DNA from: Octopus vulgaris
Lineage: Eukaryota
Assembly (NCBI GenBank): GCA_951406725.2
Contig: OX597814.1
Location: 110,236,001 to 110,300,000 of the forward strand
Direction: 5' to 3'
Length of the DNA: 64,000 nt
How positions within the stretch are numbered: the stretch's first letter is position 1; each line of letters starts with the position of its first letter. The position numbers and the translations under genes are program-made. Of this stretch, positions 7,387 through 62,088 are shown piece after piece. Under the pieces are notes generated by a model that saw nothing but the letters and a program-made list of their open reading frames with translations, ran no database searches and had not been told where the DNA came from.

Positions 7387-7575
7387 ACAGTTCTATATTT
7401 AAGAGTTGAGGAATTATATACATTATTTACATTTGACAGATATTTGTCCTCATCTTGTTTGTGTTAACACAACGTTTTGGTTGATATACACTCCAGCCTT
7501 CATCAGGTGTCTTGGGGAAATTTCAAACCTGGGTTCTCATTCCTAAGGTATTTTTCGATGTTATTCAGTGACCTG
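7387..7575 (-). mobile_element. Short hammerhead-bearing repeat, family H1 (Penelope-like, inferred)
   Basis: Homologous copies at about 8784-9090, 45806-45922 and 52532-52654; contains a hammerhead fold. Confidence 0.7.
7466..7511 (-). ncRNA. Minimal type I hammerhead ribozyme motif (C3:G8), decayed
   Basis: Minus strand reads GACAC-CUGAUGA-A-GGCUG-gagtgtatat-CAACC-AAA-ACGU-U-GUGUU. Helix I GACAC/GUGUU, palindromic helix III ACGU. G12>A and one helix II change relative to the 8826 copy. Confidence 0.75.
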
Positions 7576-7598
7576 AATAATAATAATAATTTTGATAA

Positions 7599-7682
<84 letters not shown>

Positions 7683-7684
<2 letters not shown>

Positions 7685-8070
7685 CGCAGGTGTGGCTGTG
7701 TGGTAAGAAGCTTGCTTCCCAACCACATGGTTCCAGCTTCAGTTCCACTGCAGGACATCTTGGGCAAGTGTCTGCTACTATAGGCTTTGGATGGAGTTGA
7801 TTTGGTAGATGGAAACTGTCATATATATATATATATATGTTTGTGTGTGTGTGAGTGTGTGTCTTTTTGTCTGTGTTTGTACCCCCACTATTGCTTGACA
7901 ACCAATGTTGGTGTGTTTATGTCCCTGTAACTTAGCGGTTCAGCAAAAGAGACTGATAGAATAAGTATTAGGCTTACAAAGAATAAATCTGGGATTGATT
8001 TCTCCGACTAAAAGCCTTTAAGGTACTCCAGTATGGCTGCAGTCAAATGACTGAAACAAGTAAAATAATA
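7683..8070 (+). mobile_element. CORE-type SINE, family B
   Basis: tRNA-like head ggcgcagg...ggttcagtccc, CORE-like cttgggcaagtg, internal TA/GT microsatellite, tail gactgaaacaagtaaaa. About 20 copies (approx. starts 1827, 4667, 19595, 22281, 23230, 23690, 41374, 42148, 48798, 49209, 51472, 53638, 60793). Confidence 0.85.
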
Positions 8071-8825
8071 AAACAATATTAAATTTGAAATTTATAAGAA
8101 GTTTCTAGACAGAGTACACTTCAATAATTGCTACAGCTATCGTTATTGGTCTGATAATTATTTCATTTGAGCACTTTCAACCTTTTTCTATTCTGAATAT
8201 CACAATCAGACAGTACTAGGAATGTTATCCCAGACAAATAATGAAGAATACCTGCTGATCATATATCTTTCTCAGCTAACTTACCTGTTAATGAAATGTG
8301 TTTCAGCTTCATACCTGTCAATCATATATGCCTCACCTGTCTCAACTACACTACCTGTCAATCCTATGTTGCAGCCAAACTACCTGTTCATCACATCTGT
8401 CTGGCTTTCATTACCTGTCCATCATGAATCTCTGCTACATTACCTGTTGCATTATTAATCCTTTTTGTTACCATATTTTCATTGAAAATTGTTTCAGTTA
8501 ATTTTGGAAATAACGAAGAATTTTGGATGTTTGGAACATAAATCAACCTGAAGCATTAGTTCCAAATTTTGACACAAGGCCAGCAATTTCAGGAAGGGGG
8601 TAAACCGTTTATATCGACACCAGCACATGACTGGTACTTATTTTATCAATCTGCAAAGGATGAAAGGCAAAGTTGGCCTCAATGGAATTTGAACCTAGAA
8701 CATAAAGATGGACAAAATACCACTAAGCATGCTAATGATTCTGTTTATTCACTGCCCTAAGGTTTGATAATGTTAATGGATTTATTAACAATGGACAGAT
8801 AGGTGTTCTCATCTGGTTTGTTGTT

Positions 8826-8868
8826 ACCACGTTTCGGCTGATGTATTCTCCAGCCTTCATCAGGTGTT
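8826..8868 (-). ncRNA. Hammerhead motif, family H1 copy 2
   Basis: AACAC-CUGAUGA-A-GGCUG-gagaauacau-CAGCC-GAAACGU-G-. Core and helix II intact; cleavage site and 3' helix I damaged. Confidence 0.7.
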
Positions 8869-9734
8869 CTGGTGAAATTTCAAACCCAACCCTTTATTTG
8901 ACTAATGGGGTAATCTGTTCTCATTCCTAAGGTATTCTCTTTTTTTTGCTGGTGTTATTTTGTTTAGCTTTGAGTCTCGACATCTCCACAGGAACGTTAG
9001 ATGGTTTGAAAGACGAGTTAGCTTCTGATAAAGTTTCTCTGTATGTCTCCATTGAAGTCTAATGTCAGCTCCGTGCCAATGTATTAATGGTATTAATGGA
9101 TTTCCTTAGGGATTTCTATATGTGTGGCCATTCCAATTTTAACTAAGCAATGTGGGCAAACTACAGCTAAAGTCTGAAGGGCTAACAATTTCAGAAGAGG
9201 GGGTTAAGTTGATTACATCAATCCCAGTGTTCAGCTGGTGTTTTGTTTTTCAGCCATGAAAGGATGAAAGCCAGTCGACCTTGGCGGAATATAAATCAAC
9301 ATAAAATATTGAGGGAAGGTTTTAATTTAGATAAGATTTAAAATGAGATGTTTGTTTCACGGAACAGATGCGATCTCAGATTAGAATCAGAAGATCTAAA
9401 GATGTTTGCAGCTGAAACATATCTCTGCTATTATCATCAAAGCGAATAACATTTAGTTTATATCATAGCCTCCTTTTTATTCTCTAAATTCTTCCGTTCC
9501 TTTCTGCCTGTTCTCTGGTTTTGCTGGCAGCCAACAATAGTTGCGTGATAACCCAGGTGTGTAGCTAATTTCTATATGGCTATAGAACTGACAGCGAGGT
9601 CAACCCATTGACATGTTGATGGGTGTCAAAGGTCAAAAACCAACATTTCTTTGCTTATTAACAGCACTGACTTTGTCGACTTAAACAGATGTTGCTGTTC
9701 AGAGGTGTATAAAATTTCATCCCTTCACTCTCAT

Positions 9735-9960
9735 CAGCATCATCATCATCATCATAAATAACATCATAACCATTACTATCACAAAGAATCTCATCATCAT
9801 CATCATCACCACCATCATAAACATCATCATCACAAGTATCATCATCACCATTGTAAACATCATTATCATCACTATCATAAACATCAACAACATCATCATC
9901 ATTATTATCAACAAAAGCAACATCATCTTCACCAACACAAACATCATCATTATTGTCATC
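9735..9960. repeat. Degenerate (CAT)n microsatellite
   Basis: Read directly; explains the Met-rich ORF 9717-10055. Confidence 0.9.
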
Positions 9961-10204
9961 CTCGTATTAGCTTCCACTTTTCCATGCTCACATGAGTCAG
10001 ACAGAACTTGTTCAGACAGATATTTTCTACAAGTGGACGCACTTGCTGTCACCAACCTTTAGCTGTTTTCAAATCAGGTAATTTTTCCTTTTAGCCAGAC
10101 ACATTTTTCATGAAATACTAGAAACAAACAACATTGATTGTATGACAGTGATATTAGTTCACTAACAACCATCACACTATGTGACGAGACAAAGCCGCAC
10201 ACGA

Positions 10205-10632
10205 GCATGTGCACTCTATAAATATGGAGGCAAAGTGGCTGAGTTCCTTTTGAGCATTGGTCCTCATAGAGGCAAAGTGGCTGAGTTCCTTTCGAGTGTT
10301 GGGCCTCATAGAGGCAATGACCGAGACATTTGGCATTATGTCATGCTTGAGAAGACCCCTCAAGCTGAGCAAAATTGCAGTTGTGGCAGATACTGGTGTC
10401 ACACAAATTGGCACCCATGCCAGTGGCATGTAAATGTACCCTGGCACCTGTGCCAGTGGAACGTAGAAGCACCCATTACACTCTCAGAGTGGTTGGCATT
10501 AGGAAGGGCACCCAGCCATAGAAAACCATACCAAATAAGACTGGAGTCTGGTGCAGCCTTCCAGCTTACCAGCCCTGGTCAAACCATCCAACTCATGCCA
10601 GCATGGACAACACACATTAAATGATGATGATG

Positions 10633-10633
<1 letters not shown>
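10205..10633 (+). mobile_element. 3' end of RTE-like LINE, family D, with (GAT)n tail
   Basis: DRDIWHYVMLEKT-type C-terminus, gtggcac(g/a)taaaaagcacc subrepeats, ttggcgttaggaagggcatccag box, ...ttaaatgatgatgat. Many other copies (approx. 2641, 11203, 12069, 13494, 14345, 17330, 28630, 30835, 44343, 47380, 48505, 54204, 56056, 56660, 63812). Confidence 0.8.
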
Positions 10634-10686
<53 letters not shown>

Positions 10687-10688
<2 letters not shown>

Positions 10689-10818
10689 AAAATGTGTTGC
10701 TGAAAATGCACTTAAATTTTAAAAACTCGTGAATGTTTAAAATACATATGTAAATAAATGTATTTTAAACATTCACGAGTTTTTGAAATTTAAGTGCATT
10801 TTCAGCAACACATTTTCC
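10687..10818. repeat. Inverted repeat, 61-bp arms, 10-nt spacer, (TA)n flanks
   Basis: 10687-10747 is the reverse complement of 10758-10818 with one mismatch. Confidence 0.95.
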
Positions 10819-11077
10819 TATATATTTTTTTCCTGCGTGGAGTCACCACTCCCTCTTTTGCTATATATGTATGTATTTATGTATGTATATATGATGGCGA
10901 TCTTTCTGCTTCTGCTGACCTTCATTTCCAATATTCTCTGAAAACGTGTCCGACGATGAAGAAATATTTCCTTGTTTGGAAATGGATGAGGATTGGCCAT
11001 AGGGAGGGCATCCAACTGTAGAATCTCTACCTGAACCAATTCTGTCTGACTAATATATATATATAATATCATTTAAT

Positions 11078-11202
11078 AAACACAATATATGTTTTTATGT
11101 GCTACTATTAGTTCCATGTGATGAGAGCATGCTGGGCAGCACATTCTTCAGGCACTGCCCACATAGAAGTAATAGTAGCACATAAAAACATATATTGTGT
11201 TT
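11078..11202. repeat. Inverted repeat, 43-bp arms, enclosing a hammerhead motif
   Basis: 11078-11120 versus 11160-11202, two mismatches. Confidence 0.9.
11099..11155 (-). ncRNA. Type I hammerhead motif, family H2 (C3:G8; A13>G)
   Basis: GUGC-CUGAAGA-AUGUG-(19 nt)-CACAU-GGA-ACUA-a-UAGU-A-GCAC. All three helices pair; GUA triplet. Confidence 0.65.
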
Positions 11203-11841
11203 CATCATCATCATCATTGTTTAACATCCGCTTTCCATGCTGGCATGGGTCGAACAGTTTACACTGAGAACTGGTAAGCCAGAGAGCTGCATCAGGTTCC
11301 AATCTGATCTGGCAAGCTTTCTACAGCTGGATGCCCTTCATAATGCCAACCACTCTGAGAGTGTAGTGGGTGCTTTTTATGTGCTGCCAATATGGGAGCC
11401 AGTCAGGCAGCACTAGCATCGCCACACTTGAATGGTGCTTTTTACATGCCACCAGCACAGGTGCCAGTCAAGCGGAACTGGCATCGGCCACGACTATGAT
11501 TTCACTAGACTCAACAGGTCTTCTCAAGCACAGTATAATACCCAATAATTGAAGGGTACTTTTAAACGGGTCGGTTATGCGACATCGGCATCAGCCACAG
11601 CTACAATCTCACTTTACTTGCCGGGTCTTCTCAAGCACAGCATATCTCCAAAGGTCTCAGTCGCTTGTCATTGCTTCTGTGAGGCCTAAAGTTTGAAGGT
11701 CGTGCTTCACCACCTCATCCCATGTCTTCCTGGGTCTACCTCTTCCACAGGTTCCCTCCACTGTTAGGGTGTGACACTTCTTATCTCTCACCAAATAGAG
11801 CACTTTTTTATTGATCTTACCATCATAGAGCGGTACACTAT

Positions 11842-11993
11842 ATATATAAAATATAAATTAGAGATAAAACCACTATTATGCAACTCAAACAGTTGTTTTT
11901 TTATATATTATTTGTTATTTATGTTTTGGTTTATGTCTATCACTGTTTGAATTGCATAATAGTGGTTTTATCTCTAATTTATATTTTATATAT
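11842..11993. repeat. Inverted repeat, 52-bp arms, part of a dispersed family
   Basis: 11842-11893 versus 11942-11993, one mismatch. A single-arm homolog lies at about 55950-56038. Confidence 0.9.
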
Positions 11994-12379
11994 TTATACT
12001 GTGAAATTTGATTTAATACTAAATTGAATTTTTCCCTGTAAGTTTGGAGTTATACTCCCTAATATTCTTCATCATCATCATCGTCATCATCATTGTTTAG
12101 CATCTGCTTTCCATGCTAGCATGGGTTGGACGGTTCATCTGGGGTCTGGGAAGCCAGAAGGCTGCACCAGGCCCAGTCTGATCTGGTAATGTTTCTACAG
12201 CTGGATGCCTTTCCTAATGCCAACCACTCGTGAGTGTAGAGGGTGCTTTTTACATGCCACTGGCACAGGTGCCAGACGAGGCTGGCAAACGGCCCTGATT
12301 GGATGGTGCATTTTACGTGCCACCGGCACGGGAAAAGTGTTAACAGGTTCTGGTGACGATTGAACTCACGACTTTCTGC

Positions 12380-12455
12380 GTGTATATATATATATGTATA
12401 TATATATGTATATATATATGTATATATATATATATATATATATGTATATGTATAT

Positions 12456-12489
<34 letters not shown>

Positions 12490-12764
12490 GTATATGTATA
12501 TATATATATGTATATATATATATGTATATATGTATATGTATATATATGTATATATATATATGTATATATATATATGTATATATATATATGTATATGTATA
12601 TATGTATATGTATATATGTATATGTATATATGTATATGTATATATGTATATGTATATATGTATATATATATATATGTATATATATATATGTATATGTATA
12701 TATGTATATGTATATATATGTATATGTATATATATATATGTATGTATATGTATATGTGTATATA

Positions 12765-12811
<47 letters not shown>

Positions 12812-12820
12812 ATGTATGAT
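12380..12820. repeat. (TA)n/(TATG)n compound microsatellite
   Basis: Read directly; explains the YI/IY ORFs. Confidence 0.98.
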
Positions 12821-13942
12821 AAAGAGAGGGCTTATTGAATGTCTACTTGATCTATTGGTGAAATTTAGGGTGGTTCCACCTTGCAACTGTAGTTTTGGTA
12901 CTGCAAAGAACTGAAGTCAAAGACAGACCTTCAGAAATTACCAAATGACAGTGTGCAGAGGAAGTGTGTAGAACTTTACTGTCTGACCTATTAGGTTTGC
13001 AGAAATATCAGTTTTTATTTAGAAATACCACTCTTCATTTCAATCTTGGTTGTTTACTGACTTTTCGTATGACATTCACATCAGCTGGAGAACTGGAATC
13101 TACTGCAACACACATGTTTGGTTTTCCCGCCTCCATGAAATAGTATCTGTTGTGCTTAGAACTGAAGTCTGGCAGCAGAATTACGCGAGGATCTTCTCAC
13201 CAATATTCCTTCTCCACACTGCAAGTATCAAGATTTTATTTAGTTTGTCTTTGTCAATTATTATGATGTTGATGGTTACAGGTTTTTCACTGGGTCACTG
13301 CATGTACAGTGGTCAGAGAGTATCGAGGGAGTGTCTGTGTACAATACGGGTGGAACAAATATCACAATGTTTTTTTTATTGTTCAGAAGCGTTTGTTTAT
13401 TTTATTTGACAACATTTTCATTTTTGTCAGTATACATCAGCAAAAGATATAAAAAATACACTCATTCATGTATGCGTGCACACACACACACACATCATCA
13501 TCATCATCATCATGTTTTTTTCCCATGCTGGCACACGTTGGATGGTTTCAAAGGTTCAAATGACTTGTAGGACACACATGTCTTACTCCAAGTCTCAGTT
13601 CTTGCGTAGTTTCTGTGGCTGGGTGTCTCTCCTAATGCCAACCACTCCAAGAGTGTAGTAGGTGCCTTTTACATGCCACCAGCACAAGTGCCATTGATAT
13701 GACACCGGGCATGACCATGATCTCACCTGGCTTGACAGGTCTACACAAGCACAGTACATCTGGTGATATTACTGGGGAATGCTTCTCACTTCTGGGTTTA
13801 TTTTTTCCTGATGTTGAAAAATCATTATCAGAGAGTACAAGATTGTTCCGAAGAGGCTGGTGTTGGTGTGAACTTGCCATGAGCAGCAGAAAATCCAACA
13901 TTTTTGGCAGCACTAGGCCATGTGCCTTCAGCATGTGTATGT

Positions 13943-13985
<43 letters not shown>

Positions 13986-14046
13986 TACGTATGTGAATGT
14001 ATATGTATGCATGTGTATATATATCATATATATGTGTGTGTGTGTG

Positions 14047-14290
14047 AAGGTTCATGGCTTAGTGGTTAGGGTGTTGCACTCATGATTGTGAGATCGTGGG
14101 TTCAATTCTCAGACCGGGTGTTGCATTGTGTTCTTGAGCAAAAGCACTTCATTTCATGTTGCTCTGCGATCATTTTGACATCTGACATGTGACATCCATT
14201 GCACCTTTACAGGTAATGTCAATTTGATGGAGGGAGTGAGCTTATGTCTACACAAACATTTGATTACTATAAACAAATCATCTGTGTGGT
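14047..14290 (+). mobile_element. tRNA-headed CORE-like SINE, family C
   Basis: tggcttagtggttagg A-box, gggttcaattc B-box, tgtgttcttgagcaa. Same head as 45196-45445. Confidence 0.7.
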
Positions 14291-14871
14291 TGGTTGTTTA
14301 GTAAGAAATTGTCGAACCCTCATACGTCACCTAACAACAGGAGAAATTGAAATCAAATTCGATGACTGGCATCTGTGCTAGTGGAGCGCTAAGAGTACCA
14401 TACGAGTGAGATCGGAGCCAGAGCAACAAGCTGGCCTCCAAGCCAATGGCATTTAAAAAGCACCATTCAAGCATGATCGTTACCGCGTCGCCTTACTAGT
14501 ACTTGTGCTGGTGGCATGTAAAAAACATTTGAGCGAGGTCGTTGCCAGTGCCGCTGGACTGGCTCCTGTGCAGGTGGCACATAAAAAGCACCATTTGAGC
14601 ATGGCCATTGCCAGTACTGCCTGACTGGTACTTGTACCGGTGGCACGTAAAAGCACCCACTACACTCTCGGAGAGGTTGGCGTTAGGAAGGGCATCCAGC
14701 TGTTGAAACTCTGCCAGATCAGATTGGTGTCTGGTGCAGCCATCTGGTTTGCCAGACCTCAGTCAAATCGTCCAACCCATGCTAGCATGGAAAACAGATG
14801 TTAAACGATGATGATGATGATATGGGGAAAAAGTCAAGGTAGAAAATGCTAAAATAATTTTATAAAAAATA

Positions 14872-14913
14872 TTTCTGTACCGGTTTCAGTCATTGAGACC
14901 TTTTCAACTGTAA
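14872..14913 (-). ncRNA. Hammerhead-like motif, family H3 (U3:A8 variant), decayed
   Basis: UUACAG-UUGAAAA-GGUC-ucaau-GACU-GAA-ACCGGU-A-CAGAAA. Palindromic helix III, GUA triplet; helix I pairs only 4 of 6. Confidence 0.55.
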
Positions 14914-15094
14914 GTTTGGAAAACAATTAAATTTTGGAAAAATTAAAAGAAAAGTTTTTTAAAAGAATATTCGCATAGTATTCAAATACAAGGGGCATTT
15001 TCCTTGATTCTGCCTGTCTCTGTCTCTCTTGTTTACTCTTGCAGATCAACTTGTGTGTTCCTTTTCAACCTTCTACACACACACATATATATAG

Positions 15095-15125
<31 letters not shown>

Positions 15126-15215
15126 CAACAATTGAGGGTAAAATTAATTAATTAATCAATTTCACCAAGTATTCAGTATACAAAGGGACCATTTAAGGCG
15201 AATTCAAATTATTAC

Positions 15216-15433
15216 ATTATATAAAAGGGCTTAGTAAAATAAATTACTTTGCCGCATACTGAACTCATTAGAAATAGCAGCTAAAAAAACTTTTTTAAAA
15301 CTATCTCCAATACTTAAAGAAAAGGTTTTCTTTAAGTATTGGAGATAGTTTTAAAAAAGTTTTTTTAGCTGCTATTTCTAATGAGTTCAGTATGCGGCAA
15401 AGTAATTTATTTTACTAAGCCCTTTTATATAAT
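15216..15433. repeat. Perfect palindrome, 108-bp arms, 2-nt spacer
   Basis: 15216-15323 versus 15326-15433; no mismatch seen. Confidence 0.95.
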
Positions 15434-15556
15434 ATATATATATATATATATATTAATAAAAATGGTAAGATAACAATAGAAAGAAAGAGACCTTGATATT
15501 ATGTAAATAGAGGAATTTATCTGTAAATGTAATATGTGACAATTATTCAGTAGCCA

Positions 15557-15619
15557 AGATAAAACTCCAAGTTTCGGATGCCGAGGTGGAGATCCCCGCC
15601 ACCATCTCTTCAGTTATCC
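15557..15619 (-). ncRNA. Type I hammerhead motif, family H4 (C3:G8)
   Basis: GGAUAA-CUGAAGA-GAUGGUGG...CCACC..CAUC-C-GAA-ACU-ugg-AGU-U-UUAUCU. 6-bp helix I, intact core, GUU triplet. Confidence 0.75.
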
Positions 15620-15964
15620 AGCCATATGGATGGTGGTTGCCTCACCTTGTACATTATTAGTATTGTTTTCTTGAATCTAGTCACATTTACAAAATGACTT
15701 TTCTGTCCAACTGCAAACTGTTTAAATAAACAACACAATGAAAGAAGACTTTCTCAGCAATGCCACTCTGCTACTATACACTGACCAAATGTTGTTTTGG
15801 CCTTGGAAGATTTTGCATACAATAAGATCTGTGAATTAAACTGTTTACAGTTTATCAGTTAAAACCATGCAACAAAATAATCTCTTAAAGGATTAAGAGA
15901 TTACTTTCATTTAATCAATCTGGCCAAACCCAAAATACTTCTGGTATGTGTCAACACAATATAG

Positions 15965-16268
15965 AGCAACAGTTTTCAACTGGGGTCCATGTAAGCAAAA
16001 TAGGAAAATTGGGGGTCCGTATTAGTATTTTAAAGGTCCAGTGGAAAACTTTTGGTTTAGACATATTCATTGCTAGAAACAGTTAAATTTCTTTCTCGAA
16101 TGTTTTTCATTGTTCAAACTACTCAGGTTAACGTGTGAAAAGTAAAACAGGAATTTTGAATGAAGCATCTTGAAAACTAGTTTTTAAACATCAAATGGCT
16201 TTGGGAGTTCTCTGGAATAAAATAGTATTTTCAGGGGTCCACAGATTAAGAAAAGTTGTGAGCCATTG
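15965..16268. mobile_element. hAT-type MITE (decayed)
   Basis: Subterminal ggggtcc motifs and ends resembling 20092-20349. Confidence 0.5.
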
Positions 16269-16276
16269 TTTTAGAC

Positions 16277-20349: not shown

Positions 20350-20373
20350 ATTTAGATCAATATAAAATATAAA

Positions 20374-20924
20374 TTACAGAGATGTACTTGCATAGCAAGT
20401 GACTTGATCTGAGATCATGGGCTGAAAGAAAAAAAACTGCAGCAGGGAAGATGTTTGTAAGCCATTTAAGAACACACAAAAACCCGTTAGTTTCACTTCA
20501 ACATTTAAACCTTTCATTACTGTATTTATTTTGAGATGCTCTGTGTTTCTTTCAATTAATTTTAAATATAACAAAGAATTTAGTGAAATAACTTAATTAT
20601 CATTAAGCTAGTGTTAGGAACATAAATTGTGACTAAGGTTTGGTGGAAGATTTTAATTTAAAACTTTTGAAAACAAGACATTTGTACTACAGAGCCAGAG
20701 CTGGTTTTAGGTGGGTTGGTAATGAAAGGGTTAAACTTAATTTGTGTCAAAATATTTTCATAGCTTTGAAACCGTGACCTGTTCACTGACAAAACTTCGA
20801 AGTTTTGTCAGTGAACAGGTCACGGTTTCAAAGCTACAAACATATTTTGACACAAATTAAGTTTAAATGTTGAAGTGAAACCAACGGTTTTTTTGTGTGT
20901 TCTTAAATGGCTTACAAACATCTT
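20374..20924. mobile_element. Fold-back copy of family H5 with two opposed G3:C8 hammerhead motifs
   Basis: Palindrome centre at 20798/20799; homologous to 61883-62088; motifs at 20745-20793 (-) and 20804-20852 (+). Confidence 0.75.
20509..20730 (+). mobile_element. piggyBac-type MITE, family 1, in the left palindrome arm
   Basis: TTAA on both sides; the right arm has a single TTAA at the equivalent (empty) site. Confidence 0.9.
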
Positions 20925-21019
20925 ACACACTGAAATTAAATATAAAATTTATATTATAGATCCAGGGCTATTCCAGGCATGTTGGTATCAAAAGAGATGT
21001 GAATTTAAGCTAAGAGGAA

Positions 21020-25730: not shown

Positions 25731-26904
25731 ATTATTATTATTATTATTATTATTATTTTGAACTTGACAAAGATAGGTGTACTGTTGAAATATCGTTCAA
25801 CTAATAAAATATCTTACAATCGAATTGCACTCTTCATCCATCATGACTGTTTACCTTTGTGAAGAGTTATGTCACAATCCTTTTTAAAATATTATTATTA
25901 TTATTTAAGGCAGCATGCTGGACAAAATGTTTGGCAGTATTTCGCCTGTCACTACTTTCTGAGTTCAAATTCCACCAAAGTTGACTTTGCCTTTCATCCT
26001 TTCAGTGTTGATAGATTAAGTACCTGTTGAGTCCTGGGGTCAATCTAATCAACTGTCCCCCTCATCACAAAATCCGGCCTGGTGCCTTTAGTAGAAATGA
26101 TTAATATTATTATTATAATTAAGGCATTGAGCTGGCAGAATCGTTAGCACGCTGGGCAAAATGCTTAGCGGTATTTCATCTGCTGCTATATTCTGAGTTC
26201 AAATTCCGCCAAGGTTGACTTTACCTTTAATCCTTTCGGGGTCGATAAATTAAGTACCAATTACGCACTGGGGTTGATGTAATTGACTTAATCCCTTTGT
26301 CTGTCCTTGTTTGTCCCCTCTATGTTTAGCCCCTTGTGGTTAGTAAAGAAATAAGAAGCTTCACACAACTTATCCTAGTATATCATGGTTTATAGACAAT
26401 ACGGATGAACCAGGAAAGAAGATTCAGTAGAATTTCAAGTGAAACGCTTTTCCATCTTAAACAAACACATCAATGCATTCATACCTCATTATGCAAACGG
26501 CAACGACAATTCTCTAGAAATCACTTTCGGCTCCATACATCGCACTACAACAACAACAACATAGTAGAAAGATAACCTACCCCCCAACTCTATTCTGACC
26601 ACTTCATCAAAATACACTTGCACATCAATAAACAAAATCACTTCTTTACAAAGCTCAAAAATTCCAGGTGGAACTATTTCTGTCAAGATACAAGATTGGT
26701 TTAGAGAATTGCCCATTATCAAAATCATCGACATAGGCTCTGCAATGTGCAGGGTGTACTTTCAATGAAATATTTATAATATAATGATAAAACCCATGTA
26801 AAAGTCACATCCCACAAGGTTACGTGGAATGCTACAAGTCTAATTACACAACTGCAATAAGCGATCTGATAAAAACTGAGGTTGATCTGAAAAGCACACA
26901 TCAT

Positions 26905-45605: not shown

Positions 45606-46130
45606 CAAAGGTGGGCACCGTTAATTGCAAAGTTAACTTTGTTAACTGTTAATCCATTAACCAAAAAGTTAACTTCGATAACTGTTAATCAGTTGATTTT
45701 TTAAAAATGTAACGGAAGTTATCGATAAACCATTAATGTTAATTTTTATTATAGAAAAAAAACAACAAAAATAGCAGTTTTTACTCTAAAACCACCTAAA
45801 AACATACAGTTCTATATTTAAGAGATGAGGAATTATGTGAATTATTTACATTTGATGGATATTTGTCCACATCTTGTCTGTTGTTAAAATGTTTCGGCTG
45901 ATGTATCCTCCAGCCTTCATCACTTTAAAAAGTACCAAAACTGTAAAATTCGTTAACTTCAATTGAACTGAAGATAACTTAAATTGACTTGAGTTAACGG
46001 AACTTAAATGTAACTGAAGTAAATTAGTCCAATAATGATTTCCAAAGTTAACTTAGAAGTTAAATCATCACGAAAATGTTAACTTCGTTAGTTAACGATT
46101 AATGGATTAATGGTTTGGTGCGCAGGTTTG
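45606..46130. mobile_element. hAT-like element rich in gttaac motifs
   Basis: Exact 8-bp TSD gtaaagga (45598-45605 and 46131-46138); imperfect 14-bp TIR. Confidence 0.7.
45806..45922 (-). mobile_element. Family H1 fragment truncated inside the hammerhead core
   Basis: UGAUGA-A-GGCUG...CAGCC-GAAAC retained (45890-45922); downstream sequence matches 7387-7465. Confidence 0.75.
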
Positions 46131-50714: not shown

Positions 50715-50756
<42 letters not shown>

Positions 50757-51045: not shown

Positions 51046-52531
51046 TCCTCTTATCTTCTGTCTGAACTGAAACTCATAAACTTCTGGACTAAAATAATGA
51101 ACTTATTTCACAACTACCAACTTCATCACTCAGGAATCCTGGCCACTGCTGACGTAGACCCCCCACTAAACACACACACACTCACACACACCTCCACTGC
51201 TGCTGAATATTGGAACATTACTAGAATGGAATCCAGGGTTCACCTACATAGAACAACATTCCTCTTCTTGTCTGTAACTTAATGAAATCATGGCTGTAAC
51301 AATGACAACGAAGGTGATATTGGGATAAAAGTTTGGTTTATATAACATCCTACATTCATCCACCCTGTTTCTTGGGGAACGAATGGAGGTAAAGCATGCC
51401 ATCCATGACCTTCATGCTTATAGGGATGTGTAGGATTCCCTTATAAAATGTGATCTTTCCTTTATTTATGAGGTGCAGGTGTGGCTGTGTGGTTTAAAAG
51501 TTAGCTTCCCAACCACATGGCTCTTGGTTCAGTCCTTCTGCATGCCACCTTGGAGAAAGTGACTTCTACCAAGCCCTGGGCCAATCGTAACAATCAAAGC
51601 ATTGTGAGTAGATTTGGTAGATGGAAACTGAAAGAAGCCCATTGTTTCTGTGTGTGTGTGTGTGCGCACATATTGTGTGTGTCAATCCTTGCTTTGACAT
51701 CTTGTGATAATTGGAAACAAGCTTACTGTTATAAAAGTGGTGTCTTTCATTTCTGAACATCCATGAAACATGTCTAACCATGTGGAACTATTACTTTTCT
51801 TGAAAACAGATTAGGGTTAATGACAGGAAGGACATCCAGCCATAGAAATACTGCCTCTACAAATTCTGTCTGACATATGCAAGCAGGAAAAAGTGGACAT
51901 TAAAATAATAAGAATACATTTTGAGGGAACTTTAACTGCTATTTCTAGTAGTTTGAATGGCTACTTCCAGACACCATGGTTGGAGGCTTATTATGGATAA
52001 TAGTGAAGACTTATTTATTAGTGTGGTATATCAAATGTTTAATTATAAACATTCAGATCAAGTCTCAGGTCAACTTATATCTTGATCGGCTGAGGCCCAC
52101 AGCCTGACTGAGATGCTCTGAAACCTGTCTCGTTGATGGGTGAGGGCAAAAGAGAACCAGCCACTGGATGCATTGTATCTATTTTTCTTCTCTCGCAATG
52201 TGTGTAGTTCCAAATGAGGTCAAACGAGGAAATGTAGTACTTATAAATGTCTTGGGCTCTCAGCCCCTCTTTATGGGGTCAATAGGTGTAGGTGTAGTGT
52301 CATAAGGTGGTGAGCTGGCAGAAGCATTAGCACACCAGGTGAAATGCTAAGCAGTATTTCGTCTGCTATGTTCTGAGTTCAAATTCTGCCGAGGTCGACT
52401 TTGCCTTTCATCTTTTGGGGTTGCTTAAATAAGTACCAGTTACGTACTGGGGTTGATGTAACCGACTCAATCTCTTAGTCTGTCTTTGTTTAGCCCCCTA
52501 TGAGCAATAAAGAAATAAGGAAATAGGTAAT

Positions 52532-52654
52532 ACAGTTCTATATTTAAGAGATGAGGAATTATGTACATTATTTACATTTGACAGATATTTATCCTCATTT
52601 TGTTTGTTGTTAACAACAAACAAGATGAGGACAAATATCGTCAAATGTAAATAA
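52532..52654 (-). mobile_element. Family H1 3' segment with snap-back palindrome
   Basis: Arms 52568-52611 and 52612-52654 centred on GTT|AAC. Confidence 0.85.
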
Positions 52655-52924
52655 CATAAATAACGAAGAAAATAGGTGTAGTGACATGACATACAAGGTG
52701 TCTTGTGCACATTTGGTTCTTCCAAATGAGAGAAGGTTAGATAAGACACATAGAAAGGGTGAGGGGAAAGAAGAATTGGCCCCCAGTACTATACTGGTAC
52801 TTTATTTGTTGAGCCCTGAATGGTAAAGTTAACCTCAGTAGGATTTCAACTCAGGGCATAGAAAGCTGAAATGATTGCCACAAAACAATCTGTCTGATAA
52901 ACTAAACACTGCCGGTCACCTACC

Positions 52925-52963
<39 letters not shown>

Positions 52964-53049
52964 ATGTGTGTGTGTGTATATGAATGTGTGTGTGTATATA
53001 TATATACATACGTATGTATGCATGTGTGTGAATATATATATATATATAA

Positions 53050-53515
53050 TAAATTAATAAATAAAACATATGCATATATACATACATATATGTACGTACC
53101 TACGTCTACATGTATATATACATGCATATATGGGTACAGGACACCAAAAAAACGTCGAACACAATGAGAAACGAAAACATAAACACAAAACCAAGGAACT
53201 GGACATTTTTCTTAAACAACGAAAAGATAGAGTACAGGACACAAGGAAAATTCTCCTTCTTCAGTCGCCATGGTTTCATCTACTCTGCGTTCGAAGGTGA
53301 AGGCGATACGCATCTTCGATAGAAACTTTCCTTCCCGCGAAAAGCAAATTAAATAAAATTTGAGATCTTTTTGCGGAGGGGTAAAAATAGTAACAAAAAC
53401 AGGACAGTAATGACAGTACAAAATAAAAACAGTAAAAGACAGGACAAGGAGAATAACAAGACAAGAAGGGCTGTTAAGCCGAACGAGATAAAGTGTTACG
53501 AACGCTATTTTTTAG
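53050..53515. mobile_element. Unclassified TA-flanked dispersed repeat
   Basis: Colinear with about 61201-61690. Confidence 0.65.
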
Positions 53516-55724
53516 ATATATGTGTGCGTGTATGTGTATGTGTGTATATATATATGTGTGTATATCAACTATGCATGCACACACAAATATGTTTGAAGCA
53601 TTATAAAAGTTAACTGTCTGACTTAACAGAACATATAAGTGTGGAAGTGTAGTAAGAAGCTTGCTCCCCAACCATATGGTTCCAGGTTCAGCCCCACTGC
53701 ATGGCACCTTGGTCAAGTGTCTTTTACTATAGGCTCTGGCTGACCAAAGCTTTGTGAGTGGATTTGTTAGAGGGAAACTGAATGAAGCCTGTCATATATG
53801 TGTTTGTGTTTCTGCCCCCCCACCACCACTTTATAACCAGTGTTGGTGTATTTACATCCCTGTAACTTAGCAGTTTGACAAAAGAGACCAATAGAATAGG
53901 TAGCAGTCATAAAAAGATACATACTGAGGTTGACTCATCATCATGATCATTTAATGATGATGATGAATCAACCTCATTATTTATTTATTTATTTTTTATA
54001 ACTGGTACCTATTCTATTGGTCTCTTTTGCCAAACGTAAATACAGACTGAAAATTCTTCAAAGCCATGCTCCAGCTTGGCCACAGTCAGATGGCTGTAAA
54101 AGATGAAAGATATAAACAAATTTAAACATGAAACAATCCAAAACATTTCATTCTACCTTTCATGGTATTTAAAGACACTGACTTTTTGAAGATGTGGTTT
54201 TTCATCATTATCATCGTTTAATGTCCGCTTTCCATGCTGGCACAGGTTGGATGGTTTGACTGGGGACTGGCAAGCCAGATGGCTGCACCAGGCTCCAATC
54301 TGATCTGGCAGAGTTTCTACGGCTGGATGCCCTTCCTAATGCCAACTGCTCCAAGAGTGTAGTGGGTATCTTTTACATGACACTGGCATGAGGGCCAGTC
54401 AGATGGTACTGGCAATGGCCACATCAAATGGTACTTTTTATGTGTCACCTGCACAGGAGCCAGTCAAGTGGCACTGGCAACGACCTTGCTCAAATGTTGT
54501 TTTTTAAGTAACAACATTTGTGGCACATAAAAGCACCCATTACACTCTCGGAGTGGTTGGTGTTAGGAAGGGCATCCAGCCATAGAAACCATGCCAAATC
54601 AGACTGGAGTCTAGTGCAGCCTTCCAGTTTGCCAGCTCTGGTCAAACTGTCTGTCCAACCCATGCCAGCATGGACAACAGTCATTAAATGATGATGATGA
54701 TGAAATTTTAATAACTATAGTGTTCCAGTATATGATATATTTCCTATTTTGCATAAAAGAAATAAATGAGAATGTGTGTGTGTGTGTGTGTATAAGAGAG
54801 AGAGAGCTCTTACCACTCTATTACAACTCTTTCACCATTTCTTTCTTGAATCTTCCCTGTTTTACCTCAATTTGGCCTCAGGCCCTGGATTCTTTCCATC
54901 ATTCATTATTCTGGGATAATTTTTGGAAAACATTCATTTAGAAATGCTGATACTGTTTCACGACAGACAAACAAATATCCATGCTAAATAGCCATGCTGT
55001 TTCCTACAGCAGCAATCAATGAACAAGGAAGGGTCTCTCCACCCCCACCCCCACACATACACACACTTCACCAGTCTTGGAAATATTACAAAGGTCATGG
55101 ACACTGACCTTTTCTCCTTTCAAAAATCCATTACAAACGTTATTGTCGGTAGTTTGTTATTGATATCTATGAACACACACTTTATGTACCCATTTATTGA
55201 GTCTGGTTTGGGACTGGAAAATATATCAATGTGTTTATACATCCAGAAAGGATTATTGTGGATAATCTGATGTATAAGAATTTGATTTATCCATATTGAT
55301 TTTGTTATTGAAATACTTTATTGACAAATGTTTTCTGCATTTTTCTCTCTCTCTGTAGAATTGGTAATATTTACCTATGACTTGTGGATTTGCTGTAATC
55401 TTTCTTCACGCATGGATTATTGTCTTTGAAACTAGGAGGTAAGTTTTGGCCTTAATTCTCACACACCAGACAATATCAGTCTCACACAAAATCAATCAAC
55501 ATCACATTTGTATCATCACATCATCATCATCATCATAATCATTGTCAGTTTAACAACCACATGGTCGTATGCAATTTGTTCTGTCAGATTTTCTACAACC
55601 AGATACCCTTCCTGTTGCCAACCTTCACCTATTTTGAAGGAAGCTAATATTTCCTTGTGATCAGAACACACAACACACACACACATACACATGCGCACTA
55701 TATATTTCGTTTTTATACACAACA

Positions 55725-55774
<50 letters not shown>

Positions 55775-55830
55775 TTGTAATTTCAACACACGACTTCACA
55801 TAAAAAATCTTGCACAACAAATATTTAAAC

Positions 55831-55873
<43 letters not shown>

Positions 55874-58261
55874 CATAATTTTTTTACTTATTATATATTG
55901 ATTATTCATTTTTATACTTTTTGAGACCTAGTTATGTTTTATAAAATATATTTTATTTGTTATTTATGTTTTGGTTTATATCTATCATTGTTTGAGTTGC
56001 ATAATAGTGATTTTATCTCTAATTTATATTTTACATATATATATATACATATATGACATGTAAAAAGTGCCACTTGAGCGTGGTTGTTGCCAGTGTCGCC
56101 AGACTGGCTCCTGTACCAGTGGCACATAAAAAGCACCATTCAAGCATGGTTGATGCTAGTACTACTTGACTGGCACATAAAAAGCACCCATTACACTCTC
56201 AAGAGTGGTTGGCGTTAGGAAAGGCATCCTTGCCAGATCAGATTGAAGTCTGGTGCAGCCTTCTGGCTTGCCAGCCCACTGTCAAACCGTCAAACCCATG
56301 CCAGCATGGAAAACGGATGTTAAACGATAACGATGATGATGATGATATAGGTGTGGCTGTGTGGTGTGAAATTTACTTCCCAATCATATGTTTTTAGGTT
56401 CAGTCCCACCATGTGGCACCTTGAGCAAGTGTCTTCTACTATAGCCCCAGGTTGACTAAACTGACCGTTGCTTTATTTCAGCCACCCTGAAAGACAAAGT
56501 TGACCTCAGCAGATTTTAGGCTCACACTGTAAATAATTAGAACAAATGGTGCAAGGCATTATCTATGACACTGTAACAATTCTGCCAGCTTGCCACCTTG
56601 GTGGTGGTGGTGGTGGTGGTGGTAGTAGTAGTAGTAGATGGTGAAGCTTGATTTTTCGAACTTTGAGCCTCAGAGAGGCAATGACTGGTGACCAAGACCT
56701 TAAGCAATGTGCTGTACTTGAGAAGACCCATCAAGACAAGTGAAATCGTAGTTGTGGTTGATGCAGGTGTCACATAACAGGTAGCATGTAAAAAGCACCT
56801 TGTGAGCATTGGGCTTCACGGAGGCAAAGTGGCTGATGTTGGTGGCATGTGAAATGCTCCTTTCAAGTGTTGAGTCTCATGGAGGCAATGACAAATGACC
56901 AAGACCTTTAGCATTATGTCATGCTTGAGAAGAAGACCCTTCAAACCAAGTAAAATCACAGTTGTGGCAGATACCAATGTCATGCAAATGGCAACCATGC
57001 CAGTGGCACATAAAAGCACCCATCACACTCTTGAAATAGTTGGCATTAGGATGCCAAATCAGACTGGAGTTTGGAGCAGCCTTCCAGCATGTCAGCCCTG
57101 GTCAAACCATCTAACCCATGCCAACACAGACAACAGATGTTAAATAATGATGATGATGATGATGAATAATGCAACTTTTTCTGCTGCACTCAAAACCAGC
57201 TTGAGATCAAACAGTTTAAATATTTTTTTATTTCTTTATTGCCCACCAAGTGCTAAACAGAGGGGACAAACAAAAACAGGTAAAGGGATTAAGTCGATTA
57301 CATCAGCCCAGTGTGTAACTGGTACTTAATTTATCAACCCCCGAAAGGATGAAAGTCAAAGTTGACCTCGGTGGAATTTGAACTCAGAATGTCATGGCAG
57401 ACGAAATACCGCTTAGCATTTCGCCCGGCGTGCTAACGTTTCTGCCAGCTTGCCACCTTTAAACAGTTTGAATATTGATTACAAGCTGAAATCAATCAGA
57501 TTGAAAAAGGTAACCACTATTAGATGTGAAGAAACAAATACATAATAACAATAATACTAATAATCCTTCCTGTTGTCAGCACAAGGCCTGAAATTTTGGG
57601 GGGAGGGGGCTAGTCACTGCCATTGCCCCAGCACTGAAGTAAAGCAAAGTTGATCTTGGTAGAATCTGAACTCAGAACGTACAGAGCCAGAAGAAATGCC
57701 CCTAAACATTTGGTTCAACAGGATTTGGTCTCAAGGCTCCAGTTTCATCCTTGACATGGTTTCTGTGGCTGGATGTCCTTCTAATGCCAACCACTTTACA
57801 GTGTGTACTGGATGCTACCAGTATTGATGAGGTTGCCAGGGGACTTACAAGACAGGGGAACTGAGAGAGAAAAAGGAAAAAGGTATTTGAGAGGGGGAGA
57901 TGACTTTATACTGGATGTTGGAAGGTGAAAGTAAGATAAAGGAACAGGCGTTGGTGTCTTGCTATTGAGGAGATACATGACTACCCTACATTATGTATAG
58001 AGGTGGGTGGGAGTAGTTAGGAAGGAGACAAGGTAGGGATGGAATGCGAGAGCAAACTCTCAATGTAAGCATGAAGGAGGATCTGGACAGTGGGTCATAG
58101 AGAGTGGATGCTTTGATAGTGTGTAAAGATGGGGTGAGTAACAGGCAGTCAAAGATGGGGTTGAAGGTGAATGTGGAGAGCAATGAACTAGAGTGGAGGT
58201 GCAGTTGAGGGAAAAACCAATATAAAGGGGTGTAGAGTGATATATATATATATATATATAT

Positions 58262-58719
58262 ACGGCATCACAATTCTCTCTCACACACTGTCTTGCAACA
58301 CGAAATACCTCAAGTCTTTGGTCCTCACGGCTCAGAACATTGGCAATTCTTTTCTTATCTGCTTCCCCTCTGACTAAAAAAACCTATCTCCTAGCTTCCC
58401 TTCTGGCAGTCTGATACAATTTCCTGCTACCACCGTTCTTCCAGTCCTTCCAAGCCTATTTCTTTTCTCTAATAGCTCTGTCAACAGCATTGTTCCACCA
58501 CCACATTATTTTGGGTCGAGAGGGGACTTTGCACCATCCACAGACCTGGTCAGTGGCTCTCAGCAGGTTGTACCGTAGAAACCTCCAGTTGTCTTCCACA
58601 TCATGTGAAGTTATATCTCCTTCTATTTCATCGAAAGCTTCAAGTAATACATCCCTAAATCTCTGTCCATTCGCAGGGTCCTTAAGCTTTCAAACCCTTC
58701 TCCTCCATGCTGGTCGTCT
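58262..58719 (-). pseudogene. RTE LINE endonuclease-RT linker fragment
   Basis: KLKDPANGQRF...NWRFLRYNLLRATDQVCG...WWWNNAVDRAIREKK*AWKDWK. Confidence 0.8.
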
Positions 58720-59970
58720 TATATATATAATATGTGTGTGCATTTGCATGTGAGTTTGTCTGCCAACACCACTTGGCAACCGATGTTGGTGTGTTTACTT
58801 TTTTGTAACTTGGTTCAACAAAAAGGAACCAGAATAGAATAGGTACCACACTTTAAAAAAAAAGTACTGGGGTAGATTCATTCTACTGAAAATCTTTCAA
58901 AGTGGTGACCCAGCATGGCTGCAATCTAATGACTGAAACAAGTAAAAGATAAAAGACACACACACACACACACAACAAGCTTCTTTCAGTTTCCAGTTTC
59001 CATCCTACCAAATCCATTCACAAGGATTCGGCCAGCCAGGGGCTATAGTAGGAGACATTTCCCTAAAATGCCTTGTAATGGGACTGAACCCAAGACCACG
59101 TGGCTCAGAAGCAAACTTCTTAACCACGCAGCCATGCTTGTGCTTATGTCCACATCTGCATCTTTTAAACACACAAAATATTTACATCATTACAAAACTA
59201 CACAGAACAGAAAACGAAAAACAAAACCAAGATCTTCCTCTCTTAGTCATTTCACCAGGATCCAAACAAGAGATGCTTCACTGTGGTTTTGTTTTGACTA
59301 AAAAAATGTAGGTGGGGGCTATTACTAGTCTTTTACTTCGTTCCTGCTCTTTTTTAAAAGCATGAATGAACAAAATATTGGCTCATTTATCCCAATTATT
59401 CCTCACTAATGCCAAGAAAGAAGAGAAAGAAAATATTTTAAAGAGATATCAAAATTGAGGCTGAAGGGTGTTTTCTTTTTTTATTTGTGTGATGGGGGTG
59501 GTGTAGTTTTGTAGGTTTTTTCTTGTTAACTTTTATTTCTTTTTCCTTTTTTATTTCTCCTGTGATTTTCAAAATGGCCACTGCTGTAAATAGAAGCAGA
59601 ATTGTGGACTGTTTTTTAACTTCCTCCTAAACAGCGAGCCAGGTCAAGGCCAAACAACCATATGTGCGTGTGTTTAAAGAGGTGTATATGTGTGCACATG
59701 CGTATGTACATGTATATATATGTGTGTGTGTGTGTATGCATATATATATATATATGTATGCATATTGATTACAAGTATAGCAATCAGATTGAAAAGGTAA
59801 TCATGTTTATGAGCTGTGGGGGAAATAAATAGAAAATATAATAGTCATAATAATAATAATAATAATAATAACAGAAATACAATTAAGCTAAAAGTGCAGT
59901 GGAGGGTGAATATGAGAGTTGAATGATGGAATTTCAATATTATATATTCTAATGATTTTGAAATTGGATG

Positions 59971-59974
59971 GCTC

Positions 59975-60059
<85 letters not shown>

Positions 60060-60084
60060 TCTTTCTTTCTTTCTTTCTTTCTTT
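59971..60084. repeat. (CT)n/(CTTT)n microsatellite
   Basis: Read directly. Confidence 0.97.
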
Positions 60085-60792
60085 CTAGGAAGATGGAAGC
60101 TGAGGGTTTGCAGAACACTCACTTAACCATTCTATAATTTGTTGTTTGTTTTATTTTAATGACTCCAAAAACATCAGTTTATTTTCTGAAATAGATAGTG
60201 CCATTGAAAATACAGAGAGAGAAAGGTTATCAACTGTTTTATTTTCTTTGTTTTGCCATAATAATGCAGTCTTCCTTGATGCTAATTTGACAGTAACTCA
60301 ACTTAAAGGTCTGTGAAAAATAATGTCAAAACTGCTTTCAGTACAGTGCAGATAGAGTTTTACTATTTACAAGCACTTTGGGGGAAGAAATGGTGAAAAG
60401 GAAGGAGGCATGACATCAGGTCATTGAGATCCACTGGTTTGAATGCAATAACATAATGCCATATAATTGCTTTGAATTTATTAAAAATGTATGTGTTTAC
60501 ATTGTGTGTGTGTGTGTGTACACACCCACTGCTGTCATTCAATACACAAGCTCACAAGGCTGTTCTATAGCTGGAATAAGTATTGTCCATTGTCCGGATA
60601 TTTGGCTTAAGAGAAAGACAAAGAATAATCTTGTGGCTTAGTGGCTTTTTGATTGGTTACTTAGTTACAGTAGTATGTGTGTGTGTATGTGTACTCGCCC
60701 ACTCATTATCTGTGTTTGTATGCATGTCATTTAGTGTCCGTTTTCCATGCTGGCATGAATTGTGTGTACGTGTGTGTATATATATATATATA

Positions 60793-61177
60793 GGCGCAGG
60801 AGTGGCTGTGTGGTAAGTAGCTTGCTTACCAGCCATATGGTTCCGGGTTCAGTCCCACTGCGTGGCACCTTGGGCTAGCTTCGGGCCGAGGCTATAGCCT
60901 TGTGAGTGGATTTGGTAGATGGAAACTGAAAGAAGCCCGTCGTATATATGTATATGTATATATGTGTGTGTTTGTCGCCTCCCCCCCCCCCCCCGTCCCC
61001 AACATTGCTTGACAACCAATGCTGTTGTGTTTATGTCCCTGTAACTTAGCGGTTCAGCAAAAGAGACCGATAGAATAAGTACTAGGCTTACAAAGAATAA
61101 GTCCTGGGGTCGATTTACTCGACTAAAGGCAGTGCTCCAGCATGGCCGCAGTCAAATGACTGAAACAAGTAAAAGAG
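60793..61177 (+). mobile_element. SINE family B, near-consensus copy
   Basis: Full head to tail, between (TA)n tracts. Confidence 0.9.
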
Positions 61178-61200
61178 TATATATATATATATATATATAT

Positions 61201-61866
61201 GTTAATAAAATATATGCATATATATAAACATATATGTACGTACCTACCTCTACATGTACATATACACGCATATATGTGTACAGGACACCAAAAGGACGTC
61301 GAACACATAGAGAGACGAAAAACATAGACACAAACCAAGGAACAAGACAAGCAAAAAAAAAGGAAATACAGGACAATAAGCACAACGAAAAATCCCCTTC
61401 TTCAGTCGCTAAAGTTTCATCTACTAAACGTTTCGAAGGATAAAAGCGAGACGTATACTTCGAATGAAAAATTCCTTCCCGCGAAAAGCAAATCAATTAA
61501 AATTCTGAGATCTTGTCGCAGAGGGGTAAAAAAAAGGCAAGACGGTAACGACAGTACAAACATATAAACAGTAAAAAATATATATATAAACAGTGGAAAA
61601 ATAAATATATAACAGTGAGAGACAGGACAAGGAGAACAAGATAAGAAGGGCTGTTAACGCCAGACGAAAAAAATATTGCAAACGCTGGATTATAGTGGAC
61701 GACGAGAGAGGAAGATGTCGACCAGTGGCCTTAGAAGGCAGGCGAAAAAGGACGGGATAGCAGTTACGACGGAAGTACGTCGCAGATGGACGACGGGAAT
61801 GGGGGAGGAGGAGCAAGAGGAAGAGAGAGAAGAAGGGGAATGGTGCGAGGAGACCATGAAGAGCAG
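61201..61866. mobile_element. Unclassified TA-flanked dispersed repeat (longer copy)
   Basis: Homolog of 53050-53515; CpG-rich; bounded by (TA)n. Confidence 0.65.
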
Positions 61867-61882
61867 TATATATATATATATA

Positions 61883-62088
61883 CAATACAGCACGGACTTT
61901 GTCAGTGAACAGGTCGCGGATTTTAGCGACGAAAATATTTTGACAAATTAAACTTAAATGTTGGAGTGAACTGAACGGCTTTTGTGTGTTTCTTAAATGG
62001 CTTATAAACACCTTCCACGCTGCAATTGTTTTCGTTTCAGCACACGATCTCAGATCAAATTACTTGCTATGCGAGTACATCTCCGTAA
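61883..62088 (+). mobile_element. Short hammerhead-bearing repeat, family H5
   Basis: Homologous to both arms of 20374-20924; (TA)n on both sides. Confidence 0.75.
61898..61947 (+). ncRNA. Minimal type I hammerhead motif with G3:C8 core swap
   Basis: UUUGUCA-GUGAACA-G-GUCGC-ggauuuua-GCGAC-GAA-AAUAUU-U-UGACAAA. Perfect 7-bp helix I, 5-bp helix II, palindromic helix III. Confidence 0.75.

Follow-up and report, generated by a model that had tools for sequence, protein, structure and literature searches.

Minimal hammerhead ribozyme motifs were described in 2014 in the pseudo-long terminal repeats (pLTRs) of Penelope-like elements (PLEs), as thousands of single copies and as opposite-strand pairs; the features reported include U3-A8 pairs, AU-rich sequence on the 3' side and a helix III that is palindromic (Cervera and De la Pena, 2014; PMC4209133). 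Whether these hammerheads need to cleave was left open by later work (Craig et al., 2021, PMC8557442; Frangieh et al., 2024, PMC11167929); for Poseidon_Ac, cleavage was reported to be protein-assisted, its rescue by C3G/G8C partial, and cleavage itself not needed in vitro (PMC11167929). Here we analyze a 64,000-nucleotide stretch of the Octopus vulgaris genome (contig OX597814.1, positions 110,236,001 to 110,300,000; hereafter the window), for which an initial annotation had listed nine hammerhead motifs in five short repeat families (H1 to H5) and proposed a system of non-autonomous Penelope-like or retrozyme-like RNAs. We hold with high confidence that the motifs are minimal hammerheads in the pLTRs of at least five unrelated protein-coding PLE families, and that the window contains short, mostly decayed stumps of these elements, likely made in cis by their own reverse transcriptase (RT)-endonuclease.

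Hammerhead motifs in the window and in the genome

Both strands of the window were scanned for the arrangement N3UGAN-N8A, helix II, GAAA, a short palindromic helix III, UH and helix I, with any Watson-Crick 3:8 pair accepted, and block-wise dinucleotide shuffles of the window served as the control. The strict type I scan returned three matches (position 3 at 15613 on the minus strand and at 25764 and 61905 on the plus strand) against a mean of 0.067 in 30 shuffles, a density that the shuffled sequence, named as a control in the initial annotation, did not approach. Four matches were found against 0.43 when helix mismatches were allowed (30 shuffles), and 11 against 3.1 when one core mismatch was allowed (15 shuffles, maximum 5). 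Of the nine listed copies, those with position 3 at 15613 and 61905 passed the strict scan, and allowing one core mismatch raised the number from two to four (7506 and 11151 being added). An Rfam scan of the window, which is AT-rich, repeat-dense animal DNA, gave no matches at gathering thresholds.

Decay takes several forms in the listed copies. Among the H1 copies, that at 7466 has AAA in place of GAA, that at 8826 is missing the 3' strand of helix I, and that at 45890, where the element ends at the core, reads GUGAUGA and not the CUGAUGA first reported. The H2 copy at 11099 has GGA in place of GAA, the H3 copy at 14872 has one disrupted helix I pair, and the H5 copies at 20804 and 20745 have AAAC in place of GAAA and a disrupted helix II, respectively. 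The fold of H3 was read from other copies of the family, the relaxed-scan match at 14907 being in the wrong register. Judged by their letters, the motifs are nonetheless genuine minimal type I hammerhead sequences. All nine are of hammerhead type with the topology first assigned to them (H1 to H4 on the minus strand; H5 on the plus strand at 61898 and 20804 and on the minus strand at 20745), but the list was incomplete, as it missed a motif at 25764 (hereafter H6), the end of an H5 arm at 20367-20508 and a tail at 52530-52663.

Copies of H1, H3, H4 and H5 were counted in the 2.8-Gb assembly with exact patterns that left positions 3 and 8 free; the counts are lower bounds. A protein attributed by its source to Octopus vulgaris matches loci of this assembly at 99-100%. 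We found at least 8,684 matches for H1, at least 4,937 for H5, at least 667 for H4 and at least 552 for H3, with no control match for any of them, in keeping with the high-copy, diverse system first described. Three different 3:8 pairs had also been proposed, and the family majorities agree: among the first 100 places listed for each family and read by eye, C:G was kept in 94 for H1 and 90 for H4, U:A in 96 for H3 and G:C in 98 for H5, and H2 kept C:G in 10 of 11 copies. The exceptions are single-sided changes, as decay would give. Family majorities retain the core N3UGAN-N8A ... GAAA ... UH together with helices I and II, and the loss of the core from family consensus sequences that the initial annotation had named as counter-evidence was not seen. 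Additional hammerhead-like families, one of them with U6, were met by chance in the flanks of eight other loci (L117, L123, L128, L054, L057, L113, L129 and L170), and the genome thus has more hammerhead families than the window shows.

The features identified in the window are as follows, with positions counted from its first letter.

7391 to 7552, minus strand: H1a, 5'-truncated pLTR of a Penelope/Poseidon-like PLE, C3 at 7506, G12 mutated; 79% identical to locus L025, which has RT thumb and GIY-YIG upstream
8782 to 8961, minus strand: H1b, pLTR of the H1 family, C3 at 8863, 3' strand of helix I lost
11056 to 11202, minus strand: H2, stump from the pLTR of a Hydra-like PLE, accompanied by a short inverted arm; C3 at 11151, GAA changed to GGA, helix II/loop 2 shortened
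14820 to 15085, minus strand: H3, stump from the pLTR of a Neptune-like PLE, U3 at 14907 (U3:A8), with an inverted tail at 15045-15085
15438 to 15625, minus strand: H4, stump from the pLTR of a second Hydra-like PLE, with (TA)n at its end, motif intact, C3 at 15613
20367 to 20793, minus strand: H5b, left arm of a head-to-head pair, G3 at 20786, split by an insert resembling a miniature inverted-repeat transposable element (MITE)
20509 to 20730, no strand assigned: the MITE-like repeat (family D19) inside the H5b left arm, with terminal inverted repeats and a TTAA duplication, separate from the PLE
20804 to 20958, plus strand: H5b, right arm, G3 at 20811, GAAA mutated
25755 to 25814, plus strand: H6, intact U3:A8 hammerhead, U3 at 25764; at one locus a motif 80% identical to it stands head-to-head with a Neptune-type GIY-YIG fragment
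45800 to 45923, minus strand: H1c, pLTR of the H1 family, truncated at the core, position 3 is G
52530 to 52663, no strand assigned: H1d, palindromic pair of core-less H1 3' tails
61885 to 62089, plus strand: H5a, a young pLTR standing alone (solo) within (TA)n; its G3:C8 motif is intact, with G3 at 61905 and the cut predicted to follow 61940
61997 to 62089, plus strand: the 3'-terminal ATG and 31 codons of H5a, a likely PLE open reading frame (ORF) start, in register with the N terminus of the ORF of a sister family

Coding parents of the hammerhead families

Extending the families upstream toward RT and GIY-YIG frames, as the initial annotation had suggested, showed that some longer copies of each of H1 to H5 continue into a coding end with a GIY-YIG endonuclease (EN) frame. 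RT parts were present in the coding ends of H1, H2, H4 and H5, and that of H3 comprised the EN only. In the long copies of H1 to H4 the hammerhead lies 3' of the coding end on the same strand. The term Penelope-like is therefore apt, since GIY-YIG coding ends are joined to the hammerheads of all five families, and the label non-autonomous is not needed because longer copies of each carry coding ends. The absence of a recognisable ORF, also noted at first, holds for the window, where tblastn with five PLE proteins found no RT or EN remnants, but not for the families.

Clades were assigned by comparing motifs by eye with published alignments and are not tree-based (PMC8557442). The longer H1 copies (L025, L029 and L030) have an RT thumb and/or GIY-YIG upstream without the zinc linker, and the L025 peptide was matched by five of 25 H1 loci, L025 included; by its motifs, the H1 parent is Poseidon-like. 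Hydra-type coding ends were found for H2 at three of 20 loci (L133, L145 and L150), and a Hydra-type EN was found for H4, after one upstream walk, at L175, L176, L182 and L189. The coding ends of H1, H2 and H4 consist of a decayed RT thumb and EN. Decayed translations of the H2 and H4 parents (L189, L182, L150 and L145), read by eye, have a CxCX5C linker, CxxC and a CxH near the EN end, with no CCHH. A Neptune-type EN accompanies H3 at three of 20 loci (L119, L122 and L125), two of which (L122 and L125) match a Neptune-type protein. On these motifs the H2 and H4 parents are Hydra-like and the H3 parent is Neptune-like. The families' helices share no sequence, as had been stated, because they belong to different PLE clades.

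H6 matched a single locus, where it lies head-to-head (inverted) with a Neptune-type GIY-YIG fragment. A strict U3:A8 hammerhead was found downstream on the same strand in six of 30 loci recovered with the Pfam GIY-YIG model. Direct pLTRs flanking a full ORF were found for none of H1 to H6 among the loci fetched. A Neptune-like family carries the pLTR motif CCGAAGA (C4) in both arms of L079 and in L082, and CUGAAGA in L085. In the H1 3' untranslated region (L023-L045), about 130-200 nt upstream of the core, there is a tRNA-like stretch with A-box- and B-box-like motifs, and ARAGORN called no tRNA in this region in 20 of 20 sequences.

The H5 lineage and the origin of the stumps

From two H5 loci (L016 and L018) the parent was traced to a young family, many of whose coding copies are identical. 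Its 1,025-aa open frame has RT motifs and a Pfam GIY-YIG match (E 1.8e-5), and an identical hammerhead lies about 1 kb past the stop codon in 16 of 16 loci fetched by protein. By eye, the EN is a C-terminal GIY-YIG with a short CX3CxxC linker, within the Nematis CX2-5CxxC type, and CCHH. The RT (L165, 1971-5045, minus strand) has about 70 extra residues, the distance from motif A to B' being 131 aa against 62 aa in two Neptune-type ORFs of the octopus genome. This distance was 129-135 aa in the 109 homologues in which both motifs were found, and the EN motif was C-terminal wherever it was found (40 of 110). The H5 parent thus reads as Nematis-like but is unplaced among the named PLE clades, the insertion of about 70 aa in the RT fingers not fitting the Nematis clade. 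An identity with Naiad was rejected because the EN is C-terminal; motif searches of the supplement of PMC8557442 came back blank, a weak negative. Comparison with a protein atlas gave RT-like clusters without names only.

A sister family of the same architecture is 55% identical to the H5 parent over 807 aa. At 30 of 30 loci (L231-L260) it carries the hammerhead-like motif CUGAUGC, with C3:G8 and C9, and it has direct pLTRs 4.6 kb apart. The sister pLTRs end 3' at about +161 (18 cases) or +213-220 (13 cases) from position 3, about 25 and 82 nt into the ORF. We also noted that this family, likewise young, has a 1,311-aa ORF with an Asn-rich insert and three tandem copies on contig 19.

The anatomy of H5 insertions was read from the first 50 places on contig 1, less two overlaps of the same locus and five copies of a duplicated segment, which leaves 43 loci (L263 was classed as long after its sequence was read). 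Among 57 core-bearing arms, 35 have their 5' end at -18 to -25 from position 3 (mode -22), 16 end closer to the core and six beyond -30, with none at -26 to -35. The edge at about -22 sits at what we take to be an initiator-like A. On the 3' side, copies stop at about +125 or +190, which corresponds to about 33 and 98 nt from the start of the inferred ORF. The last 93 nt of H5a comprise an ATG and 31 codons that align with the sister ORF N terminus (40% over 25 aa, E 0.005 among 60 N termini), and this in-register match places both 3' ends likely just inside the ORF. Inverted pairs make up 27 of the 43 loci, and 26 of the 27 combine one long with one short 3' end. Another 16 places, taken by a 3' marker (8,226 matches) and having no exact core, comprised 11 copies mutated across the core and five cut inside or after it; a start at the predicted cut (+37) fits at most one of the 16. 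This 5' edge and the internal 3' ends are in keeping with run-off synthesis on uncleaved RNA. On contig 1, six loci (L208, L265-L268 and L270) have the same H5 palindrome and the same flanks and represent a larger duplicated or transposed segment. A non-autonomous palindromic H5 master with this one junction was considered and rejected, as the flanks are common too.

We propose that the stumps arise as follows. By analogy with an Anolis element studied in vitro, the PLE protein would nick AT-rich DNA, reverse transcription would begin internally, at either of two sites a short way into the ORF, and copying would proceed toward the 5' end of the RNA and run off there. In most H5 templates the RNA end would lie about 22 nt ahead of the core, probably at the transcription start, and the usual product would be a stump of 150-215 nt in which the hammerhead is uncut. 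Head-to-head pairs, with a long tail on one arm and a short tail on the other, would result from priming on both strands, and full-length copies would need a tandem read-through RNA. The U3:A8 and G3:C8 pairs would be compensatory swaps fixed in single families, with the 3:8 pair predicted to be kept, and cleavage, if any, is predicted to be weak and dimer- or protein-assisted. Copies were seen to stop at fixed 3' positions, in many cases within (TA)n, and often to form head-to-head pairs.

The short copies could instead be self-propagating non-autonomous elements, that is, solo pLTRs resembling short interspersed elements, with an internal promoter and using the PLE protein in trans. The fixed H5 5' edge with its initiator-like A would suit such elements, and short copies are much commoner than long ones. 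Precedents exist in the internal pLTR promoter of Penelope in D. virilis (PMC2377424) and in the possible trans mobilisation of A. vaga pLTRs (PMC3846280). However, the hammerheads of young stumps are letter-identical to those of coding copies, and the 5' ends of H1 and H4 copies spread over hundreds of bases. The junctions of inverted pairs also vary by locus, the one recurrent junction (six loci) having the common flanks of a segment duplication. We consider this account improbable.

Far less probable still is that the families are metazoan non-LTR retrozymes, with tandem units of 150-450 nt and circular RNA. The unit of about 215 nt, the type I hammerhead and the low GC content resemble them, and a 2026 preprint derives retrozymes from PLE pLTRs (bioRxiv 10.64898/2026.07.22.740005). 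Yet one exact pattern for a head-to-tail dimer, applied to H5 only, had no match in the genome; the pairs are head-to-head, the motifs are of the minimal PLE type and the longer copies contain ORFs, so that the retrozyme-like part of the initial proposal is not needed either. The stumps are truncated or solo pLTRs of PLEs and not a separate non-autonomous or retrozyme system.

Between H5 and its sister, G3:C8 and C3:G8 differ by a two-sided swap with helices I to III kept, which suggests selection on the fold, and the swap in the young H5 family likely keeps the ribozyme fold intact. The H5 monomer was computed to fold helices I and II. Four contig sets presumed to derive from RNA cover the H5 stump; as contigs show neither ends nor strand nor level, they were counted neither for nor against any reading. 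Possible, though less likely than not, is a further reading in which H5 belongs to an unnamed, widespread PLE lineage with the fingers insertion of about 70 aa and a C-terminal Nematis-type EN. Its currently amplifying octopus family would have fixed a natural G3:C8 pair beside a C3:G8 sister, and in its thousands of stumps the DNA would preserve where transcription started and where, at both sites, RT initiated on an uncleaved template. Alternatively, the 5' edge could be an RT stall or a splice-related end and not a transcription start, or G3:C8 could be catalytically dead and kept for protein binding or a promoter role. The H5 parent has a splice-acceptor-like stretch ending at -21. An intron of D. 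virilis ends at helix I (PMC4209133), and in Poseidon_Ac hammerhead mutants had no effect on insertion in vitro and C3G/G8C rescue was partial (PMC11167929). Against these alternatives, the stumps lack a common upstream exon, and in comparison with the sister the two bases of the 3:8 pair have changed places with the helices kept. We judge them rather unlikely.

Several observations weigh against our interpretation. Most copies of every family are stumps, and trans remobilisation of some subfamilies is possible. The -22 edge coincides with a branch-point/pyrimidine/AG stretch that resembles a 3' splice site. The ORF links of H2 and H3 are decayed fragments (3/20 loci each), that of H6 is one locus in inverted orientation, and the clade names come from motif comparison by eye with no tree. 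The junction of the H5 pLTR with the ORF start is a 25-aa alignment only, with no intact 5' pLTR-ORF copy among those fetched. In a two-copy cofold of the 50-nt H5 motif the helix III dimer was not the minimum-energy form, and the C9 of the sister motif departs from the consensus.

Two neighboring repeats were also recorded. The MITE-like repeat at 20509-20730 has further copies near 3151, 3402, 19290 and 33721, and we take its TTAA duplication to be piggyBac-like. An inverted repeat at 15213-15437, with 137-bp perfect arms (98%), adjoins the H4 stump.

Comparison with known systems

The PLE hammerhead system is already known, and the window is ordinary for a PLE-rich genome. Less ordinary is the young H5 family, with its many identical coding copies, natural G3:C8 pair, C3:G8 sister and unplaced RT lineage. 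H5 and its sister are a convenient pair with which to ask whether cleavage by PLE hammerheads is required, and the sharp H5 5' edge with its paired tails supports, on a genome scale, the view that RT initiates internally on uncut RNA beyond the one element studied in vitro. Hammerhead searches that fix C3 and G8 overlook thousands of copies in the octopus genome. In the literature searched, only engineered G3-C8 hammerheads were found; the survey of PLE variants by Lunse et al. (2017) was not covered, and we claim no priority. A search combining octopus, Penelope and hammerhead yielded nothing on H1 to H6 beyond Craig et al. (2021).

The octopus motifs agree with the minimal hammerheads of metazoan PLEs in their type I topology, palindromic or absent helix III, extra base after A9 and AU-rich 3' flank, in the many families per genome, in their mostly single or inverted copies and in the natural U3-A8 pair (PMC4209133). 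They differ in that a G3-C8 family is not mentioned in the abstract, results, discussion or supplement file 2 of that paper, the last of which does not include octopus.

The H2 and H4 parents share with the Hydra clade, which includes Hydra-1_Obim from Octopus bimaculoides, a CxCX5C-type linker, CxxC, a terminal C-x-H/R-like motif, the lack of CCHH, (TA)n targets and a helix III of the ACUx-x-xAGU type given in File S2 (PMC8557442). Their hammerhead sequences differ from the Hydra-1_Obim motif, with a longer loop 2 in H2, and they therefore represent other families. The H5 parent resembles the Nematis clade in its C-terminal GIY-YIG, short CX3CxxC linker and CCHH (PMC8557442, Figs S1, S2 and S7), but its 131 aa from motif A to B' imply an insertion that the same paper reports only in PLEs with an N-terminal EN.

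Non-LTR retrozymes likewise have short type I hammerhead units in animal genomes and a proposed PLE origin (PMC7229834; bioRxiv 10.64898/2026.07.22.740005). They are defined by head-to-tail tandem units (PMC7229834), whereas the H5 pairs fetched are inverted and the pattern search gave no H5 tandem. Poseidon_Ac is similar in that RT starts internally at two sites close to the beginning of the ORF, which gives an optional tail, in that both strands are extended, and in its AT-rich targets and uncut RNA template (PMC11167929). Unlike in that element, the two 3' ends here are about 60-65 nt apart and not the reported 30-40, the H5 ATG lies 93 nt past position 3 and not inside the ribozyme, and the H5 5' ends are sharp-edged. 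More generally, the 5' truncation, inverted pLTRs, optional tail and (TA)n targets of EN-bearing PLEs are matched by H5, with 27 of 43 loci inverted, and by the variable 5' ends of H1 and H4.

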